NCBI RefSeq assembly: GCF_009557235.1 | Contig: NZ_CP045650.1 | Span: 1,890,001 to 1,922,000 of the forward strand | DNA length: 32,000 nt | Reading direction: 5' to 3' | Source: Acinetobacter wanghuae | GTDB lineage: Bacteria; Pseudomonadota; Gammaproteobacteria; Pseudomonadales; Moraxellaceae | Shown here: positions 10,276 to 27,828 of the stretch, in pieces | Layout of the letters: every line of letters starts with the position of its first letter | Numbering within the stretch: the stretch's first letter is position 1 | The notes under the pieces: model-generated | What the model saw: only the letters and a program-made list of their open reading frames with translations | The model's database searches: none | Told to the model about the DNA's origin: nothing | Translations under genes and position numbers: made by a program

Positions 10276-10303
10276 GAACTTGGGAATAATGGTGGGTATC
10301 CAA
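10276..10303 (+). promoter_or_regulatory. Candidate ECF (RpoE/AlgU-type) promoter: GAACTT, 17 nt, TCCAA
   Basis: GAACTT at 10276-10281, a 17-nt spacer, then TCCAA at 10299-10303, directly upstream of the ECF sigma gene. This resembles the GAACTT-N16/17-TC(A/T/C)nA consensus of group-4 envelope-stress sigma factors. It rests on a single motif match only. Confidence 0.3.
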
Positions 10304-10359
10304 TGACAGGATTTTCCATCTCTATGGATTTAGCACCGAAACGGCTTGAATCGCAAGAT

Positions 10360-10938
10360 ATGAGTACGCTAAAGAGTACGGCTGAGTCTCGCCTGAAGAA
10401 TTTTATGCAAGAGGTGACAGGTCGTGCTTTGGTGATGATGGAAAGTGCAACCCAAGGTCAGCAAGGCATTGCAATGGATCTTGTCCAAGAAGCCTTTATT
10501 TCACTACACAAATCCTATTCTGATAAAAGCACAGAAGAATGGTATCCCCTGTTTTACACCATTTTAAATAACAAATTACAAGATTGGCGTCGTAAAGAAG
10601 CGCGCCGTGCCCAACCCTTTTCATTCTTCAAAAAAGTCCAACTCGATGAGGATGACAATGAACTTGAAAATATCGTCGATGAATCCACACCTTCGCCTTT
10701 AGAATTTTTAAATCAAGCACTGACTGCCGATGAAATTCAAGGAGCCATTTCATCTTTACCTCATCGACAACAACAAGCCTTTATGCTCAGAGCATGGGAA
10801 GGCTTTGATACGCATACGACGGCGCAGATTATGAATTGTAGCGAAGGCAGTGTAAAAACACACTATCATCGTGCGATTCAAGGTTTACGTAGCGCTTTGG
10901 CACATTTAAACCCATATACGGGAGGATCATCCGAATGA
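10360..10938 (+). CDS. ECF-family (sigma-70 group 4) RNA polymerase sigma factor
   Basis: Region 2 (DLVQEAFISLHKSY, LQDWRRKEARR) and region 4 HTH (RQQQAFMLRAWEGFDTHTTAQIMNCSEGSVKTHYHRAIQGLRSAL). The maximal ORF starts at 10303, with an internal ATG at 10324. I prefer 10360 because the candidate promoter -10 element overlaps 10303 and the resulting 192 aa is a typical ECF length. Confidence 0.75.
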   Translation: MSTLKSTAESRLKNFMQEVTGRALVMMESATQGQQGIAMDLVQEAFISLHKSYSDKSTEEWYPLFYTILNNKLQDWRRKEARRAQPFSFFKKVQLDEDDNELENIVDESTPSPLEFLNQALTADEIQGAISSLPHRQQQAFMLRAWEGFDTHTTAQIMNCSEGSVKTHYHRAIQGLRSALAHLNPYTGGSSE

Positions 10939-11252
10939 GTCATGATGATTTCTTGAAACAAGTGACTTCCAAACTCGATGGTTTAGCGCAACAACACAAA
11001 GCTAAACCTGTGGTCATGAACCATGTACTTGAAGAAGTTCAAGCCGCTCAACATTCACGCTTTGCTTTTTTAAAAGTCTCTGGTTTTGCACTAGCGGCCG
11101 CAATTGCAGGCATTGTGGTAGTCCCTAATTTATCAACGCCTGAAAGTAACCATACTCAAGTTGTGGCTGTACCTAAATTATCACCACAAATGGTTGAAGA
11201 TTTAGAAATGCTCATGGTATTAGGTGAGGACGAAGTTCCCCATGGCAGCTAA
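10935..11252 (+). CDS. Putative single-pass membrane anti-sigma factor or hypothetical protein (105 aa)
   Basis: The start overlaps the sigma gene stop (ATGA). One TM helix (VSGFALAAAIAGIVVVP). Position and topology fit an anti-sigma factor. No zinc-binding anti-sigma motif was seen and no family recognised. Confidence 0.5.
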   Translation: MSHDDFLKQVTSKLDGLAQQHKAKPVVMNHVLEEVQAAQHSRFAFLKVSGFALAAAIAGIVVVPNLSTPESNHTQVVAVPKLSPQMVEDLEMLMVLGEDEVPHGS

Positions 11253-11640
11253 AAAAATTGTCTTGGCTTTTTGCGCAATCGGATTCTTGCAAACGAGCTT
11301 TGCTGGATTTGATCGGTTTTGGATTTTTTCCAAAGATGCCAATACTCAAATTAATGATACTTGGGATTCTTTGTCAGATACTGAGCAATTGGAACTCATT
11401 AAAAAATATCAAACCTTAAAAGAACTTCCGGCAAGTGAACGAGCAAATTTGCAACAACGTATGGATTGGTTTAATCAACTGCCTGAGGAAGAAAAACAGA
11501 AAATGCGAGAAACATGGCAGAAAATGAGCACGCAGGAACGTCGAGAGCTTGCCTCGCGTATGCAAAAAGCTACAGCTGAAGAACGCCCTGCAATTCGAGA
11601 AGAGTACATCAATAAATATCTCTCGACGCCTAAACTTTAG
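11242..11640 (+). CDS. Secreted DUF3106-like protein (W-x2-[LM]-[SP]-x2-E repeats)
   Basis: The ATG at 11242 gives the signal peptide MAAKKIVLAFCAIGFLQTSFA and overlaps the upstream gene by 11 nt. Repeated motifs: TWDSLSDTEQLEL, WFNQLPEEEKQKM, TWQKMSTQERREL. The DUF3106 assignment is from memory. Confidence 0.6.
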   Translation: MAAKKIVLAFCAIGFLQTSFAGFDRFWIFSKDANTQINDTWDSLSDTEQLELIKKYQTLKELPASERANLQQRMDWFNQLPEEEKQKMRETWQKMSTQERRELASRMQKATAEERPAIREEYINKYLSTPKL

Positions 11641-11672
11641 AGATTTATAAAAATATAGACATGATCTCTTAT

Positions 11673-11705
11673 AAAAAAAGCCTCTGATGACAGAGGCTTT
11701 TTTAT
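11673..11705. terminator. Bidirectional rho-independent terminator shared by the ECF operon and the convergent large-protein operon
   Basis: AAAAAAGCCTCTG (11674-11686) / CAGAGGCTTTTTT (11691-11703), with a 4-nt loop. Confidence 0.75.
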
Positions 11706-11711
11706 TGTGCT

Positions 11712-14105
11712 TTATTTTTGCATTCGTCGTTGACGATAAGCACCGAGTGCGACTAAACCAAGTAAGCCCCAGATGCCAAATGCACCGCCACCCGAACTAC
11801 TTTCATTGGTATTCTTCGCAGAATTTTTCAATAAAATTGTCGCTGTATTCGACATTCCGCCATCTTCATCAAAATAATTATACGTTGCTTGATAATCAAA
11901 TTGGCTTAAATTATTTTTCACTTTAAAGCTAATCTCACCACCATAACACGTGTCACGAATATACTTATCTGGACACGGTCCTTCGCGTTCAGCAGTCATG
12001 ATTAAACCTGAATCTATTGATTCAAAGCGAATTGGTGTGTCGCTGTAATACGTTTCAGAGCCCGATACTGGTCCATCATCATCAAAATCGTTAGAAAGTG
12101 GATTAACCTTAACACTCAGGTTAGATTCTGGATTGATTGTATAGGTGTCATTTTTAGCAACTGGTGCAATATTGACGAAAGAGGCTGATAGTACACCTGA
12201 AGAACTTTTAGCACTTGCACCAGTTTTAACAATTTCGGTCAAGGTGTATTCACACAGTTCACTCAACGTTGAATCTGTAGTTTTTCTATCCGTACGATAG
12301 AACATAATACGTTTTAGTTCAGGCACCCATTCACATTTTTGTGCAGGATCTGCTTGAGTTGCATAAGGATTATCACTACCTTCAACAATCTGCCCCACAC
12401 CTTTCGCTCTAACAGTGACCGTATAATTATCAGCATTTAAAGCTTTTAATTTTAGCTCACCATTGCTCGTGGTTTCTTCAACCGGTAAAGCAAGCTCAAA
12501 TGGATCGATATAAATCGCACGGTATTTTGCATACTTTTTAGTGTTTGCGAGCAATGATTCAACGTCTTTTAACTCAGCTTCAATTTGTAGCAAACTCGAT
12601 TTGTTTGCATCATCTTTTTGCATCGCTTTTAAACGCTCAATCATGTTTTCATATGCGGTGATTAAATTACTATAAGAAGAATTTTTCAGTGCTGTAATAT
12701 CTGATGCTGCTAAACGCATCAACTCTACTGAGCCAATGTCACACGAGTTAATTGCAGTGGGATCAAGTATAAGTTTCGTTACAAGTAGACGTGAAAATCC
12801 TCGCTGATCGGCTGAATTACAACTTTGATGACCCGCGTCAACGAAATCTGTCTCTGTTCCATGATTAACAGGATAATACAGTGGTAAATACAAGTTATAA
12901 GCAGACTCTGCTTTATAGCCTGAAAGATAATGATTAATCGCGGCATTATCCGCCAAGATCATATTTTTTGCTGTCTCTGTTTTTGGTGTCTCTGTTTCAG
13001 GAGGTTCTGGTAAGAAGCAATTTGCTGCCAAAGCATTATTGGAAGCCACTAAACTGACATTTTCGCCCTTCGCATCTGTCGCTTTCATACTATAGCGACA
13101 ATTCTCACCACCATTAAAGGCTAAAATATTTGAAACTAATAATTTGGTTCCAAATTTATCGTAGAGCAAAGTCGATGCCGCATCGTTTTCTACAACAGTA
13201 TTGCTCACAAGTGAAAGCAATGAACCATCATAAAGTTCACGATTCGGTGTGGAAATATAACTAATAATTGCACCTGTCGCACTATTCGCTTTATTCTTAG
13301 CAATTGTACTATTCGAAATTTCAACGCCAGTAGAACCACACACATCAATTGCACTTAAACTGTGAGCATCTCCATTTTCTACAATACTACTTTGAGTGAC
13401 ATTGGTGCTTGACGTCACAGGACTGAATTTCGCATTACAATCCATCGACCATACGCTGCCTTGAGGTGCTTTATTCGCTTTCAGTAATGTGCGGACAATC
13501 GATAAAGATTGATTTTGATCACCTGCCGCAAAATAAATAGCACCGCCTTTACCGCCTGCGGTCGAATTTGACACACTAGAATTATAAAGTTCGAGAGACC
13601 CACCGATGAATAATGCCCCGCCATTACCACGATCATTACTCGTCACATTTGCCTGACCATTGACCAGAGCAAGGTTATTTAAGGTCAAACTCGCTTTAGT
13701 TTGCGACGTGTTAAAGATTCGCGATTGTCCTTTGGCATTGATAGTGGTTTTTAATGCGAGCTGTTTAGGATAATCCCCTTTTAAATCATCTTTTTGTTGC
13801 TCATCGAAAGGGAGTTCACCATATAAAATCACGGGCGATGAAGGTGTAAGTTCACCTTGAGTAAGTACATACTCTCCGGCTTCAAGCTGAATATAATCGC
13901 GCTGTCCCGGCAAGGTGTTTCCTGCATTACAGCCTGCTACACTCTTGTTTTCATAGGCAGTTTGTATGGCTTGGCGTAATGAACACTTACTTTTATTATC
14001 ATCATCACTAAAGTTAGTGACTTTAATGATTTTGCTCTCAGCAGCCATTAAGGAAAAGGTCGATAAGAGCCCAACAACAAATAAACTTTTTTTATAGATT
14101 TTCAT
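11712..14105 (-). CDS. Large secreted protein (797 aa): signal peptide, CSLRQA motif, beta-helix-like GGA repeats, DQRG...CDIGSVE, coiled-coil insert, Ig/cadherin-like module, GlyGly-CTERM-type tail
   Basis: Signal peptide MKIYKKSLFVVGLLSTFSLMA. SKCSLRQAIQTA at residues 39-50. GGALFIGGS and GKGGAIYFAAG turns. DQRGFSR...CDIGSVEL at residues 433-462. APVAKNDTYTINPESNLSVKVNPLSNDFDDDG (cadherin/VCBS-like). C-terminus SSSGGGAFGIWGLLGLVALGAYRQRRMQK, which is Gly-Gly, then a hydrophobic helix, then a basic cluster. Confidence 0.8.
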   Translation of the reverse strand: MKIYKKSLFVVGLLSTFSLMAAESKIIKVTNFSDDDNKSKCSLRQAIQTAYENKSVAGCNAGNTLPGQRDYIQLEAGEYVLTQGELTPSSPVILYGELPFDEQQKDDLKGDYPKQLALKTTINAKGQSRIFNTSQTKASLTLNNLALVNGQANVTSNDRGNGGALFIGGSLELYNSSVSNSTAGGKGGAIYFAAGDQNQSLSIVRTLLKANKAPQGSVWSMDCNAKFSPVTSSTNVTQSSIVENGDAHSLSAIDVCGSTGVEISNSTIAKNKANSATGAIISYISTPNRELYDGSLLSLVSNTVVENDAASTLLYDKFGTKLLVSNILAFNGGENCRYSMKATDAKGENVSLVASNNALAANCFLPEPPETETPKTETAKNMILADNAAINHYLSGYKAESAYNLYLPLYYPVNHGTETDFVDAGHQSCNSADQRGFSRLLVTKLILDPTAINSCDIGSVELMRLAASDITALKNSSYSNLITAYENMIERLKAMQKDDANKSSLLQIEAELKDVESLLANTKKYAKYRAIYIDPFELALPVEETTSNGELKLKALNADNYTVTVRAKGVGQIVEGSDNPYATQADPAQKCEWVPELKRIMFYRTDRKTTDSTLSELCEYTLTEIVKTGASAKSSSGVLSASFVNIAPVAKNDTYTINPESNLSVKVNPLSNDFDDDGPVSGSETYYSDTPIRFESIDSGLIMTAEREGPCPDKYIRDTCYGGEISFKVKNNLSQFDYQATYNYFDEDGGMSNTATILLKNSAKNTNESSSGGGAFGIWGLLGLVALGAYRQRRMQK

Positions 14106-14123
14106 AATGAGTCCGTCATTTTA

Positions 14124-15932
14124 TTATTTTAAGCGTCTTAACATACCCAAACCCAGTAAGATCACTAGCCATCCTAGACCGGTCGATCCACCTGATGTTT
14201 TAATTTTATCGCTCACCATGGTGTTATCAGGTTCTTGAACAATGTTCACCCGCACATCTAAATAAGGATCACTCTCTTCAAAGCGTGACGTGGTTGTGAC
14301 AACACGAAGTGTGAAAGAATCTTCACCATGCCAAGCACTGTTTGGTGTGTAAACTACATTACCATCAAGATCAATCGTCAATTTACCTTTAGATGAAATA
14401 TGACTCTGCTGTTTAATCGTAATACAGCCATCTTGCCAAACTTCACCCTGCGGTGCAGCACCCACAATACGATTACATTCAGATTTCGGCACCAAGTCAC
14501 TATCACCTAATGCATCTAAAATTGAGAATTTCGCAATTTCACCGACTTTAAGATCTTGCCCAACTAAGCTTGATGATCTTGGTACGACGATTTCAATCGC
14601 ACCACGATCACAGCTAATATTGGCAGGTGATGTCGATGGACGTGATTGTTCACGTTGATCCGACCCCATACAAAATAAAGCATGTTCACTCACTGCTGCT
14701 TTACCTGTATTAATGATCGGTGATTCTGAAATATTTTGATAATCCAGTGGAATACGTGGACGGAAATACCCTAGAAAACTTTTTTCAGATGCTTTGTATG
14801 GACATAAAATTGCTTTGGGCGATTCTGTAATATTTGGACATTTTCCTTCAATGTCATTACCCGCAATCGGGTTGAAATCGAGAGGCAATATCTGATTTTC
14901 ATAATCTGCTTCACCAGAACCACAGGATGCTGTCACTAGGTTGTTTTGTAAGCGCTTATTTTCACTGGTCACACTGGTTGCAAAACTACAGTTACTATCA
15001 CTACCACCATTGCTATTTGCCAAGATAATGCTGTTTGCCACAATGCCAAACTTATCCTGAGCGGTAAATACAATACCCGTGCCTTTATTCGCAATGATGG
15101 TGGCATTATTAACGGCTACCCCATCAATAATATTTAGGACAGCGCCATTGTTGGCATACAAACTTGAATTATAGATATGACCTTGTGCTGTGTTGAGCAA
15201 TGCTTGCTCGGTATATAAATTGGCAGAGGCAGTCTGATGTGTGGTGTTTTTACGAACGACTGATTGTGTCATTCTAAGGCTAGGGAAGACGCTATATACT
15301 GCACCACCCTGTTGAGCTGTGTTTCCCTCAATCAACGTATTTTTTACTGTAGCTAAGGCGATATCACCCTCTACACCTGCAGTAAAAATTGCTCCACCTT
15401 GATTGGCATAACCTGAAGTTAACTTTACATAATCTAGGCTTAAATTGGCATAGTTGAAAATTAGACCACCTTGATCGACCTGACAGCTATTAGTGCCACA
15501 GCCTTCTAGCGTTAATTCTTCAAGCTTAACCACTGGTAAATCTTTACTGTCTGCATCAAGCGCCTTTTCAATTTTTAAAATGCGATCTTTACCATCCATT
15601 TTAATAATGGCATTAAGCAGCCCCTTATTGACCGTTTGCGTCACATTGGTTTCGTAAGTCGTTTTGATCGTTGCTGACTTATTCAAGACCAACTGACTTT
15701 TAATGTTATAGATTTCTTTTTCTTTGAGCAGAATAGAGGTCGTCGAGTTTTCGCCACCACACCCTTTATATCCTTCTTTAGGCATACCTATGTTGACGTA
15801 ATGAATGGCTTCACGAAGCGAACATTCTTTATCGGCGACATCATTATCAAGTGTGGTCGTTACAATAATATCTGCACTGAAAGCTTGCCCAGCAATACAC
15901 AGCAAACCCATGCCGATGCTCTGTTTGAGCAT
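14124..15932 (-). CDS. Large secreted protein (602 aa): signal peptide, CSLREA motif, beta-helix-like GGA repeats, DQR...CDRGAIE, Ig-like module, GlyGly-CTERM-type tail
   Basis: AAGGAGAAAGTC precedes the ATG. Signal peptide MLKQSIGMGLLCIAGQAFS. KECSLREAIHY at residues 36-46. QGGLIFNY, NQGGAIFTAG and QQGGAVYSV turns. SDQREQSRPSTSPANISCDRGAIEI. LTIDLDGNVVYTPNSAWHGEDSFTLRV. C-terminus KTSGGSTGLGWLVILLGLGMLRRLK. Confidence 0.8.
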   Translation of the reverse strand: MLKQSIGMGLLCIAGQAFSADIIVTTTLDNDVADKECSLREAIHYVNIGMPKEGYKGCGGENSTTSILLKEKEIYNIKSQLVLNKSATIKTTYETNVTQTVNKGLLNAIIKMDGKDRILKIEKALDADSKDLPVVKLEELTLEGCGTNSCQVDQGGLIFNYANLSLDYVKLTSGYANQGGAIFTAGVEGDIALATVKNTLIEGNTAQQGGAVYSVFPSLRMTQSVVRKNTTHQTASANLYTEQALLNTAQGHIYNSSLYANNGAVLNIIDGVAVNNATIIANKGTGIVFTAQDKFGIVANSIILANSNGGSDSNCSFATSVTSENKRLQNNLVTASCGSGEADYENQILPLDFNPIAGNDIEGKCPNITESPKAILCPYKASEKSFLGYFRPRIPLDYQNISESPIINTGKAAVSEHALFCMGSDQREQSRPSTSPANISCDRGAIEIVVPRSSSLVGQDLKVGEIAKFSILDALGDSDLVPKSECNRIVGAAPQGEVWQDGCITIKQQSHISSKGKLTIDLDGNVVYTPNSAWHGEDSFTLRVVTTTSRFEESDPYLDVRVNIVQEPDNTMVSDKIKTSGGSTGLGWLVILLGLGMLRRLK

Positions 15933-16049
15933 GACTTTCTCCTTAATTTTTTATCTATTTTTATTCTTAAGTCGCAAAATCCCTGCAACCTCGAATTATT
16001 TTGCCTTACTGTGTCATAGACTGCTGAAATTCTCAACAATTTTTATCAT

Positions 16050-16754
16050 TTATCGATATTCGTCAATCAGTGCATAAATTTGTCGTAAATTGGCATGACT
16101 GACTTTGAGTTTTTCGCCCTTAAACAGCTGAATAATTTGTTCTAATGTTTGTAATAATACTGACGCCTGATGTGAGCCATGGTTTAACAAATAATCAAAA
16201 ATTTGTTGATCTAAATGAATACCACGACGATCAAGAACGGATGAAACCAAACTATAACGATCTGCGTATAAACTCCCATTAGGAACCCGAGTACTCACCG
16301 CCTGCGTTAAACGTGATTGTAGATCAGGAAGTTCGAGTTTAAGTTCAATCGGTGCAAAACGAGATGAAAACACCAATTGCCCTCCACCTTCATTGTTATA
16401 ATTAATTAGGTGAAATACTGCTCTTTGCCAATGTGGTACGCCACTGATGGCTTCAATATCATCTAAAGCCACTAAATCATATTGATCAAGGGAACTAATG
16501 GCTTCAGTGGGTGCATCTAAAAGTTCCAATAAAGAAACTTTAATCGCTGACTTACCCACTTCTAAATAAGAATCACAAATGGCAGACAACAGGTGACTTT
16601 TACCTGAGCCTGCACCGCCATACACATAAAAGCGACTAATCAAGCCTGTATGCAGTTGACGAATGGCATCAATCACATGTCCCCAACCCGGACCTGAAAA
16701 ATCACTAATTCGGGCATCGAGCTGAGGTTCTATGTCTAATTGCAATTGACGCAT
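16050..16754 (-). CDS. hda: DnaA regulatory inactivator Hda (DnaA-related AAA+ protein)
   Basis: Walker A GGAGSGKSHLLSAICD, Walker B LVALDDIE, PDLQSRL (as in E. coli Hda LPDLASRL), and an N-terminal MRQLQLDI resembling the beta-clamp-binding motif QL(S/x)L. The 234-aa length matches Hda. Confidence 0.88.
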   Translation of the reverse strand: MRQLQLDIEPQLDARISDFSGPGWGHVIDAIRQLHTGLISRFYVYGGAGSGKSHLLSAICDSYLEVGKSAIKVSLLELLDAPTEAISSLDQYDLVALDDIEAISGVPHWQRAVFHLINYNNEGGGQLVFSSRFAPIELKLELPDLQSRLTQAVSTRVPNGSLYADRYSLVSSVLDRRGIHLDQQIFDYLLNHGSHQASVLLQTLEQIIQLFKGEKLKVSHANLRQIYALIDEYR

Positions 16755-16768
16755 ATTAAGGTAACGCC

Positions 16769-17989
16769 CTATTCATCAAGTGGTGAGTTTGGATTCATCT
16801 TAGCTTTTTTTTCATCAACTTGCAGTGATTTTGCTGATGAAGATTTCATTTCAATCTCTACATCAATCTCATCACTCTCAATATTGATTGTACCCGGTGT
16901 CGCAGCTTGAATCATGGTTTGACGTGGTGCGTATAAAGCACTCCGCTCATACCATTCTTTTAAATGCCGCAATAAAACAACAATTACAGCAGCCACGGGT
17001 AATGCAATCAGCATGCCGAGGAATCCACCTAATTGCGCACCCGCAAGCACTGCAAAAACGACAGCAACTGGCGATAGCCCAATTTTATCACCCAATAAGA
17101 ACGGTTGCAGAATATAACCTTCTATGGCTTGACCCACCATAAATACAACAATCACTAAGATGATTTGCATCCAATCCAAACCAAATTGGAACAATGTGGC
17201 AATCATGGCTGCAATAATACCGACAGCAAAACCTAGATAAGGAATGATACTAGCCAAGCCAGCGACCATACCAATGATTAAACCAACCTCAACGCCAATC
17301 AGTTGTAGACCAACCGCATAGACAATACCCAGCAGAACCATCACCAAGAATTGACCTTTAACAAAGGCACCTAAAACCGAGTGACATTCACCCACAATTT
17401 TCATCGTTTCAGGTTCATATTGACGCGGGATCAGTCCACGTAAATTGTCGAGCATTCGCCCCCAATCGAGCAAGAAATAGAAGGCAATAATCGGAATTAA
17501 AACCACGACACCACCGATCTGCAAGAAGTTCAATCCAGACTGCGCGACTTTCATTGCCATGGCTTGAATACTGTCAGCGCTGTAGTTGGTCTGCACATAA
17601 TCCATCACTGCAATCGTGATTTGATTGGTATCAATTTCCATGGGAACAAGGTTAAAAGTTTGAGATACCCAAGGAAGTAAATTATAATTAATCCAATGAA
17701 TACCTTCAGGAATATGCGACTTTGCATACATGAGCTGTTGCCATACCAATGGCACTAGATACCAAAGTGCCAAGGTGAGTACCACACCAATGCCGATAAA
17801 CACACAGCTAATTGATAACCAACGTGGCAAACCCATATGATGTAGTCGATCGACCAGTGGGCTAAATAAATAAGCCACTAAAAAGGCACCAACAAATGGC
17901 AATAAAACGGGTTTAAGCAAATACAAAACCCAAACGATCAACGCAATTCCTGCGAGGATAAAAATACGACGCAAAGTACGATCTACCAT
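16769..17989 (-). CDS. AI-2E family transporter (PerM/YhhT-like permease)
   Basis: Multi-TM protein with the conserved C-terminal region IEGYILQPFLLGDKIGLSPVAVVFAVLAGAQLGGFLGMLIALPVAAV. It lies 14 bp upstream of hda on the same strand. Confidence 0.85.
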   Translation of the reverse strand: MVDRTLRRIFILAGIALIVWVLYLLKPVLLPFVGAFLVAYLFSPLVDRLHHMGLPRWLSISCVFIGIGVVLTLALWYLVPLVWQQLMYAKSHIPEGIHWINYNLLPWVSQTFNLVPMEIDTNQITIAVMDYVQTNYSADSIQAMAMKVAQSGLNFLQIGGVVVLIPIIAFYFLLDWGRMLDNLRGLIPRQYEPETMKIVGECHSVLGAFVKGQFLVMVLLGIVYAVGLQLIGVEVGLIIGMVAGLASIIPYLGFAVGIIAAMIATLFQFGLDWMQIILVIVVFMVGQAIEGYILQPFLLGDKIGLSPVAVVFAVLAGAQLGGFLGMLIALPVAAVIVVLLRHLKEWYERSALYAPRQTMIQAATPGTINIESDEIDVEIEMKSSSAKSLQVDEKKAKMNPNSPLDE

Positions 17990-27264: not shown

Positions 27265-27828
27265 ATGGAAAATGTACAGCATCAAAACGTTTCTACGGAA
27301 AGACGCGTGATGTCACGTATCGATGCTGCCTTACGAATTAATTATCAGATTATTTCCGATGATGTTGCTTTAAATGATCCTTACGATCCTAACTTCGTAT
27401 TGCCTCGCTATTTTCTACTACTTGCAGAATTAGATCAATTTGATCACGCGTTAAACTACGAATTAGAACAATTATCTGAAAAAGATCAACAAATTGCTCG
27501 AATCTTATCCTTATTCAACCAAAAGTTAAACCTTATTACTGGTTCTTTGTATGACGCGATTGTACAAAGCATGTTACCTGTACCTGAGCAAGTCAACTTT
27601 TCAGAAACAGGATTTAGCTTCTTTACCGATCGTCCGATCACTGAAGGTGCCTATATTCACGTGACCTTAAGCCACCCTGAAAACTTCTTTCATGTCGCAG
27701 CAACCGCACAAGTGGTCTATAGCCGCGAAGAAGAAAATAATAAGTTCCGTACAGGTGCTTACTTTATTACGCTGCATCCGCAAGATCGCGCGAAATTAGG
27801 CGAATGTGTCAAAGCAGGCTTTGCTTAA
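27265..27828 (+). CDS. PilZ domain protein with a long helical insertion between the two c-di-GMP-binding motifs
   Basis: GAGG lies 9 nt upstream of the ATG. RRVMSR (RRxxxR, nt 27301-27318) and NFSETG ((D/N)xSxxG, nt 27595-27612). Confidence 0.7.
   Translation: MENVQHQNVSTERRVMSRIDAALRINYQIISDDVALNDPYDPNFVLPRYFLLLAELDQFDHALNYELEQLSEKDQQIARILSLFNQKLNLITGSLYDAIVQSMLPVPEQVNFSETGFSFFTDRPITEGAYIHVTLSHPENFFHVAATAQVVYSREEENNKFRTGAYFITLHPQDRAKLGECVKAGFA

Follow-up and report, generated by a model that had tools for sequence, protein, structure and literature searches.

The rbtA operon of Acinetobacter wanghuae: two paralogous beta-helix proteins, probably displayed as non-enzymatic binding surfaces

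What do the two long, adjacent reading frames between hda and an extracytoplasmic function (ECF) sigma operon of Acinetobacter wanghuae encode, and what are their products likely to do? We addressed this question in a 32,000-nucleotide stretch of contig NZ_CP045650.1 (positions 1,890,001 to 1,922,000), referred to here as the window, with coordinates counted from its first letter. The upstream gene, P1, encodes rhombotarget A (RbtA), and the downstream gene, P2, encodes a longer paralogue. We consider it likely that they form the genus-conserved rbtA operon, whose products would follow the Sec, rhombosortase and type II secretion system (T2SS) route to the cell surface and act there as a pair of non-enzymatic, binding beta-helix proteins.

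14124 to 15932, minus strand: P1, rbtA (rhombotarget A), 602 amino acids, identified by TIGR04212 and a crystal-structure match
11712 to 14105, minus strand: P2, CSLREA-domain, GlyGly-CTERM paralogue of RbtA, 797 amino acids
14106 to 14123, minus strand: intercistronic spacer between P1 and P2, 18 bp
15939 to 15944, minus strand: Shine-Dalgarno sequence AAGGAG, 6 nt 5' of the rbtA ATG, invariant across the aligned loci

Two related beta-helix proteins

P1 is a full-length member of the RbtA family. It matches the NCBIfam equivalog TIGR04212 "rhombotarget A" at 620.8 bits (cutoff 295), with residues 1-601 of 602 aligned to model positions 1-605 of 605, and a phmmer search matches residues 19-449 to PDB entries 9CDU and 9CDV, "Rhombotarget A", at E 2.2e-58. 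These entries are the A. baumannii RbtA beta-helix crystal structures of Rettie et al. 2025, Nat Chem Biol (9CDV apo, 9CDU complex), the only solved structure of its class (PMC12643943). The AlphaFold2 (AF2) model of P1 (pLDDT 87.7) superposes on 9CDV_A in Foldseek at E 2e-28, with a TM-score of 0.86, an rmsd of 2.5 Å and 33% identity, and the next-best beta-helices lie far behind. CSLREA_Nterm (TIGR04214; 32.6 bits, cutoff 25) and Pfam Big_9 (28.0 bits, cutoff 23.6) are matched as well. The protein is organized as follows.

15876 to 15932, minus strand: predicted Sec signal peptide, residues 1-19, predicted cleavage between AFS and AD, hydrophobic 15-mer maximum at residues 6-24
14586 to 15875, minus strand: right-handed parallel beta-helix, residues 20-449, from HMM, phmmer, AF2, Foldseek and motif search
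15804 to 15824, minus strand: CSLREAI N-cap, beginning at residue 37
14592 to 14660, minus strand: C-cap DQREQSR...CDRGAIE, residues 425-447
14223 to 14570, minus strand: Ig-like domain (Big_9 / tandem-95-type), residues ~455-570, from the Big_9 match and a beta-sandwich in the model
14127 to 14201, minus strand: putative GlyGly-CTERM tail, residues 578-602, consisting of SGGS, a hydrophobic helix and RRLK

The predicted mature N-terminus agrees with the crystallised A. baumannii construct, which begins at the homologous Ala20 (PMC12643943). A second, family-invariant Cys lies at residue 58, and pattern search located the coil turns GGLIF, GGAIF and GGAVY. The tail, SGGSTGLGWLVILLGLGMLRRLK, has a 15-residue hydrophobic helix, is modeled as a transmembrane (TM) helix at residues 586-601 and is covered by the RbtA equivalog model. 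Asn, Ser, Thr and Gly together make up 32% of P1 and, likewise, of P2.

P2 is 100% identical to WP_153389238.1 (Acinetobacter wanghuae) and belongs to a family of ~800-residue proteins of Acinetobacter and Alkanindiges, named in databases only as "CSLREA domain-containing protein" or "hypothetical protein". Its AF2 model (pLDDT 86.3, pTM 0.82) places in order a signal helix (residues 5-18), a beta-helix to residue ~465, a helical hairpin, two beta-sandwiches, a flexible linker and a C-terminal membrane helix.

14043 to 14105, minus strand: predicted Sec signal peptide, residues 1-21, predicted cleavage between LMA and AE, coinciding with the modeled helix 5-18
12711 to 14042, minus strand: beta-helix, residues 22-465, from the AF2 model and the profile alignment to the RbtA family
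13965 to 13985, minus strand: CSLRQAI, beginning at residue 41
12723 to 12809, minus strand: C-cap DQRGFSR...CDIGSVE, residues 433-461
12534 to 12674, minus strand: P2-specific long helical hairpin, residues 478-524 (AF2 helices 478-497 and 499-524), with no RbtA counterpart
11820 to 12518, minus strand: tandem beta-sandwich domains, residues ~530-642 and ~645-762, the second cadherin-like
11715 to 11798, minus strand: GlyGly-CTERM tail, residues 770-797, consisting of SSSGGG, a hydrophobic helix and RQRRMQK
12965 to 12997, no strand assigned: 15-bp tandem repeat (x2.2) with A5-A6 runs, encoding a disordered PETETPKTETAK loop (pLDDT <50 at residues 372-378)

The tail of P2, SGGGAFGIWGLLGLVALGAYRQRRMQK, matches GlyGly_CTERM (TIGR03501) at 16.2 bits (cutoff 15.5) over residues 772-793, with a TM helix at residues 778-796 in the model. 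The second, family-invariant Cys lies at residue 59, and the coil turns read GGALF and GGAIY. Several domain assignments were read at the family level, from an alignment of 44 P2-family members. The window's P2 reaches 19.9 bits on CSLREA_Nterm, below the cutoff of 25; all 44 members match this model (best E 3.4e-12), and the orthologues at two loci beyond the 80 analysed below score 44.4 and 43.5 bits, the latter in Alkanindiges. Choice-of-anchor Q (NF041518), the model expected at the DQRG...CDxGAxE cap, gives 19.6 bits for both window proteins, below the cutoff of 25; 34 of the 44 P2 relatives match it at E <= 0.01, and the Alkanindiges RbtA at 28.7 bits. Cadherin_4 scores 22.1 bits on P2 (cutoff 25.1) and is matched by 20 of the 44. 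The second sandwich carries an invariant NDxDDDG motif, with D675, D677 and G678 invariant, and Foldseek places the C-terminal domains with cadherins and S-layer Ig domains at probability ~1.0 and low TM-score.

With full-length P2 as the query against PDB, Foldseek matched only these C-terminal Ig/cadherin-like domains. Because 9CDV was absent from its top 50, the link between P2 and the solved structure rests on profile-profile homology, not on superposition. Neither the P2-family HMM profile nor single-sequence phmmer gave a significant match among PDB sequences.

Pairwise identity between P1 and P2 is 25%, and hhalign joins the P2-family and RbtA-family profiles at a probability of 99.8% (E 9.5e-30). 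The alignment spans 397 columns, begins at the signal peptide, runs through to the CDxGxxE cap and stops at P2 residue ~466, before the helical hairpin. P1 and P2 are, on these alignments, ancient paralogues. Alkanindiges has the same gene order with both lineages, which dates both duplication and operon to before the Acinetobacter-Alkanindiges split.

Much of this had been anticipated by a sequence-only reading of the window. The two minus-strand frames of 602 and 797 residues, the 18-bp gap, the AAGGAG, the bidirectional terminator and the flanking ECF sigma operon (10303-11640, plus strand) and hda (16050-16754, minus strand) are all present. Pattern search recovered the shared landmarks it had listed (signal peptide, CSLR(E/Q)AI, second Cys, GGA turns, DQR...CDxGxxE and GG tail), its description of the pair as old paralogues agrees with the profile alignment and the Alkanindiges loci, and the right-handed beta-helix it had suggested appears in both AF2 models. 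The families it had named were borne out in part: CSLREA_Nterm in P1 and GlyGly_CTERM in P2 exceeded their cutoffs, and GlyGly_CTERM in P1, CSLREA_Nterm in P2, choice-of-anchor Q in both proteins, Pmp and Cadherin_4 stayed below theirs. It had not identified the first protein as rhombotarget A, a family that already has a name.

Some A. wanghuae assemblies have P2 annotated as two separate ORFs (fragments P0316/P0319, P0322/P0326 and P0323/P0325), with breaks at residues ~331-340 and ~368-382. Two of the three breaks fall in the 15-bp repeat at 12965-12997, and they could reflect either slippage, with on/off switching, or homopolymer sequencing error.

Conservation of the gene pair

One genome per species was scanned, 170 genomes had a P2 relative, and the best 80 loci, all from Acinetobacter, were analysed. 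In all 80, the gene directly upstream of the P2 orthologue is rbtA, and hda, cxpE and purM flank the pair wherever the contig permits, in the order cxpE-hda-rbtA-paralogue. Both ORFs are full length in essentially every locus, with a P1-P2 gap of 3-48 bp (mode 9) where measured. An A. baumannii-complex contig shows the same order, and its upstream gene scores 749 bits against the crystallised protein. The order also holds in Alkanindiges, where RbtA scores 572 bits and its partner 43.5 bits on CSLREA. The placement beside hda that the sequence-only reading had proposed to check across Acinetobacter extends to the whole set of loci and beyond the genus.

The sequences themselves diverge quickly. 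Relative to the window proteins, the pair has a median identity of 44-45% and eight neighbouring genes 72-93%; hda, purM and fbp are 88-93% identical across species, a sharp local contrast in rate. This contrast is consistent with a surface-exposed product. Within each family the invariant residues are Gly and Asn at turns, Cys pairs and both end caps. Across both families the invariant positions are Gly, Asn, Cys and the two caps, and no charged position in the helix body is conserved in both.

An exhaustive profile search returned three tiers of relatives: ~40 full-length P2-type cluster representatives; proteins of 700-790 residues from other bacteria, combining a CSLREA beta-helix with GlyGly-type tails (e.g. 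Fluviicoccus keumensis); and giant multi-repeat proteins that match the GGA coils only.

Proposed export and surface display, and competing explanations

No paper in the literature searched gives either protein a biochemical or cellular function, in agreement with the sequence-only reading, which had called the pair the least-understood cargo of the window. For biochemical function that description stands; it does not extend to the structure, T2SS dependence and proteomic detection of orthologues, which are already published (PMC12643943, PMC4713064). Haft & Varghese 2011 defined GlyGly-CTERM and rhombosortase and found exactly two GlyGly-CTERM proteins per Acinetobacter genome, co-occurring with rhombosortase (PMC3237569). 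In A. nosocomialis M2 the products of the adjacent genes M215_02250/M215_02255 are among the strongest T2SS-dependent exoproteins listed by Harding et al. 2016 (PMC4713064), in line with the T2SS route that the sequence-only reading had put forward. Their supplement lists rhombotarget A (WP_022575261.1, 66 kDa, 24-26 peptides) in 2D-DIGE spots dependent on gspD, which encodes the T2SS outer-membrane channel, and, under the next accession, a "membrane protein" (WP_022575262.1, 88 kDa, 34-35 peptides) in T2SS-dependent spots (PMC4713064). By its size and consecutive accession, rather than by sequence, the 88-kDa protein is probably the P2 orthologue. Both proteins also occur in A. baumannii vesicles, where they change together (PMC11395390). 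Biofilm-membrane, vesicle and stress proteomes contain RbtA (A1S_2602) together with its neighbour, and the two have been placed in the pertactin-like superfamily.

P2 orthologues have been labeled "outer membrane protein A", "membrane protein", "gammaproteobacterial enzyme transmembrane domain protein" and "rhombosortase" (PMC4713064, PMC5861075, PMC9952577, PMC7667040), and later reviews list "rhombosortase and rhombotarget A" as T2SS substrates. In these lists "rhombosortase" is apparently a mislabel of the 88-kDa partner, since the original wording is ambiguous and a polytopic membrane protease is unexpected in supernatants.

The route that we favour combines these observations with the processing mechanism demonstrated for VesB of V. 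cholerae (Gadwal 2018, PMC6219818). Both proteins would be synthesised with a Sec signal peptide and pass through the inner membrane, where the C-terminal GlyGly-CTERM helix would tether them. By analogy with VesB, a rhombosortase encoded elsewhere in the genome would cut after Gly-Gly, and the new C-terminus would probably be lipid-modified. The T2SS would then move the folded protein across the outer membrane, leaving it on the cell surface, with a fraction shed to the supernatant and to outer-membrane vesicles. At its N-end the displayed beta-helix would be capped by the CSLREA helix, probably with a disulfide, and at its C-end by DQR...CDxGxxE, and a stalk would keep it off the membrane: one Ig-like domain in RbtA, and the helical hairpin with two Ig/cadherin-like domains in the paralogue. 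Most likely, the helix presents a non-enzymatic binding surface, as an adhesin or surface-coat component under diversifying selection.

It is unlikely that the beta-helices are instead secreted carbohydrate-active enzymes (lyase, glycosidase or depolymerase) tethered at the surface, with capsule, biofilm matrix or host glycans as their substrates. The right-handed beta-helix is a classic fold of pectate and alginate lyases and of phage depolymerases; weak Foldseek matches fall on the PL6 alginate lyase 7DMK (TMq 0.29), the depolymerase VexL (6FI2) and phage tailspike and lyase models; and the characterised Vibrio GlyGly-CTERM proteins are mostly hydrolytic enzymes. However, no enzyme family, lyase or hydrolase, was significant in Pfam or NCBIfam for P1, P2 or the 44 P2 relatives. 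The residues common to both families either have structural roles (Gly/Asn turns and Cys pairs) or belong to the end caps. The flanks of the helix differ strongly from species to species, as an active-site groove rarely does, and the RbtA surface targeted by a designed binder is described as flat (PMC12643943). An enzyme was therefore set aside as the lead explanation, there being neither a family match nor shared conserved catalytic residues, and the lyase or glycan-binding role that had been suggested from the sequence did not find support. Because no enzyme family matches, no charged helix-body residues are shared and the flanks diverge fast, the passenger is more likely a binding protein or adhesin than an enzyme.

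Several points weigh against the export and binding scheme. That no catalytic site can be recognised is purely negative evidence, and the Vibrio cargo and the Foldseek matches to PL6 lyase and VexL lean towards an enzyme. On the stand-alone GlyGly_CTERM model P1 scores 12.9 bits, below the cutoff of 15.5. Among all ORFs of at least 120 residues scanned in the 32-kb window, none is a rhombosortase or rhomboid (the unannotated ones are PilZ, alpha/beta hydrolase, DUF3106 and similar proteins), and the presence of the protease in the host genome rests on the published co-occurrence at genus level (PMC3237569). Cleavage in Acinetobacter is a prediction carried over from Vibrio; detection in culture supernatant may mean that the proteins are largely released rather than retained on the surface; and the literature searched reports no adhesion, biofilm or virulence phenotype for either gene. 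Even so, we infer rhombosortase cleavage, lipid anchoring and a binding or adhesin role as the scheme that best accommodates the data.

That the two proteins act jointly, with the long-stalked paralogue and the short-stalked RbtA assembled into a heteromeric structure or coat on the surface, is quite unlikely. It would explain their constant co-encoding: the operon does not vary across the 80 loci and Alkanindiges, its spacing being 3-48 bp, and no Acinetobacter genome has GlyGly-CTERM proteins other than its two products (PMC3237569). They change together in vesicles (PMC11395390) and both occur in T2SS-dependent spots (PMC4713064), and the extra helical hairpin modeled in P2 could mediate oligomerisation. 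Yet co-transcription alone explains the co-variation, and RbtA crystallised and bound a ligand on its own (PMC12643943). Finally, it is scarcely credible that the genes are dispensable, decaying cargo without a selected function: the split P2 frames and the low interspecies identity might suggest it, but the ORFs are intact in essentially all loci, neither the structural core nor the caps nor any Cys pair varies, conservation extends to the upstream region and the Shine-Dalgarno sequence, the proteins are abundant enough to appear in several proteomes, and two of the three breaks lie in a repeat of A5-6 runs prone to assembly error.

These results supply context and do not describe a new kind of system. 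RbtA, which belongs to the core genome and is exposed at the surface, comes from a genus that includes the priority pathogen A. baumannii, and it is already the target of designed macrocycle binders. It is always paired with a longer paralogue, which may be equally exposed, a point that matters to anyone targeting RbtA or seeking a function for the pair. The pair evolves at roughly twice the rate of its neighbours and retains its structural skeleton, and this high surface variability between species is relevant to diagnostic, vaccine and drug-target use.

Flanking sequence and comparison with known systems

The region between hda and rbtA was aligned across 46 non-redundant loci.

15933 to 16049, minus strand: 117-bp spacer between hda and rbtA, strongly conserved throughout the genus
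16021 to 16037, minus strand: the window's counterpart of the palindrome CTTGAGnAATTnCTCAAG, just past the hda stop
16005 to 16019, minus strand: near-invariant block CTATGACACAGTAAG (AGCTgTGACAAAGTAC)
15971 to 15989, minus strand: small hairpin GTTGCA-gggattt-TGCGAC upstream of rbtA; RNAalifold gives 4 pairs, all with compensatory changes
11674 to 11703, no strand assigned: bidirectional intrinsic terminator AAAAAAGCCTCTG-tcat-CAGAGGCTTTTTT, 13-bp stem with A- and T-runs on either side

The near-invariant block is followed by an A-rich tract and then the invariant AAGGAG. To judge from its sequence, the block is possibly an extended -10 promoter, TTGAGA-N17-(TGn)CAAAGT; alternatively, it could be a DnaA-box-like site. 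A generic promoter scan picked a different, weak site at 16066-16039 and did no better on this sequence than on shuffled sequence (18 sites against 17.5 expected). The hairpin at 15971-15989, which may lie in the 5' leader of the rbtA mRNA, is retained in distant species with wholly different stems, such as AGCCCTA/TAGGGCT in locus L076. No Rfam family matched it, and an Rfam scan of 11000-17000 gave only sub-threshold matches, on the terminator hairpin.

The most far-reaching proposal links this region to the proteins. RbtA and its paralogue would form a surface assembly that requires both parts, rhombosortase would have no other clients in Acinetobacter and Alkanindiges, their exposed beta-helix faces would diversify as a main contact for phages, predators or host immunity, and the conserved palindrome and leader hairpin beside hda would set their expression. 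We hold this combination to be improbable.

On the hda side, the CxpE transporter gene and purMN follow. On the other side, the terminator closes both P2 and the convergent ECF operon (10303-11640, plus strand), which comprises three overlapping genes for a PRK09047-type ECF sigma factor, a 105-residue protein that contains a hydrophobic segment and may be an anti-sigma factor, and a DUF3106 protein. This operon occupies the same position in 65 of the 80 loci and in Alkanindiges, and is absent there in the other 15, some of which end at contig edges. Control of rbtA by the adjacent ECF sigma operon was set aside: the operon is convergent and shares only the terminator, and no evidence for a link emerged. 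Elsewhere in the window, two small unannotated ORFs on the plus strand gave a weak aegerolysin match (2225-2617; 17.8 bits, below the cutoff of 22) and a PilZ domain (27265-27828; 31.3 bits).

Among known systems, two can be set aside as homes for the pair. Membership in the pectate/alginate lyase or GH28-type families was rejected for lack of a family HMM match in the two proteins and 44 relatives and of a shared charged cluster, the structural matches being weak. Chlamydial Pmp and pertactin-type adhesins are closer in character: they share the right-handed beta-helix, the GGA(I/L/V) coils, surface exposure, fast evolution and a likely binding role. P1 and P2, in contrast, lack an autotransporter beta-barrel and would be anchored through GlyGly-CTERM and the T2SS rather than by type V secretion. 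Membership in the Pmp/POMP autotransporters was accordingly rejected (Chlam_PMP 14.6 bits, cutoff 20.6; POMP_repeat 12.2 bits, cutoff 15; C-terminus a single TM helix).

Gammaproteobacterial CSLREA and GlyGly-CTERM proteins such as Fluviicoccus keumensis WP_130413534.1 share the VTT..DE.G.N...CSLREA cap, the beta-helix and GlyGly-type tails, and match positions 1-475 of the P2 profile at E 1e-116 to 1e-50. They differ from P2 in their length of 700-790 residues, in lacking the P2-type C-terminal half and in having no known rbtA partner. VesB and other V. cholerae GlyGly-CTERM proteins (Gadwal 2018, PMC6219818) have the same tripartite C-terminal sorting signal and T2SS dependence and, by analogy, the expected route of tethering, cutting and surface display, whereas their passenger domains are unrelated, VesB being a serine protease.

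The closest systems are the A. baumannii-type proteins themselves. P2 is the A. wanghuae orthologue of the CSLREA protein encoded downstream of rbtA (A1S_2601, HMPREF0010_02135; probably also WP_022575262.1 and one gene of M215_02250/02255), which has been seen in secretomes and has no name, structure or dedicated study of its own. P1 falls in a family already named and structurally solved: it has the domain order, fold (TM 0.86) and position downstream of hda of A. baumannii RbtA (TIGR04212; 9CDV/9CDU), and differs from the crystallised protein in sequence, with 33% identity, and in length, with 602 residues against 617.

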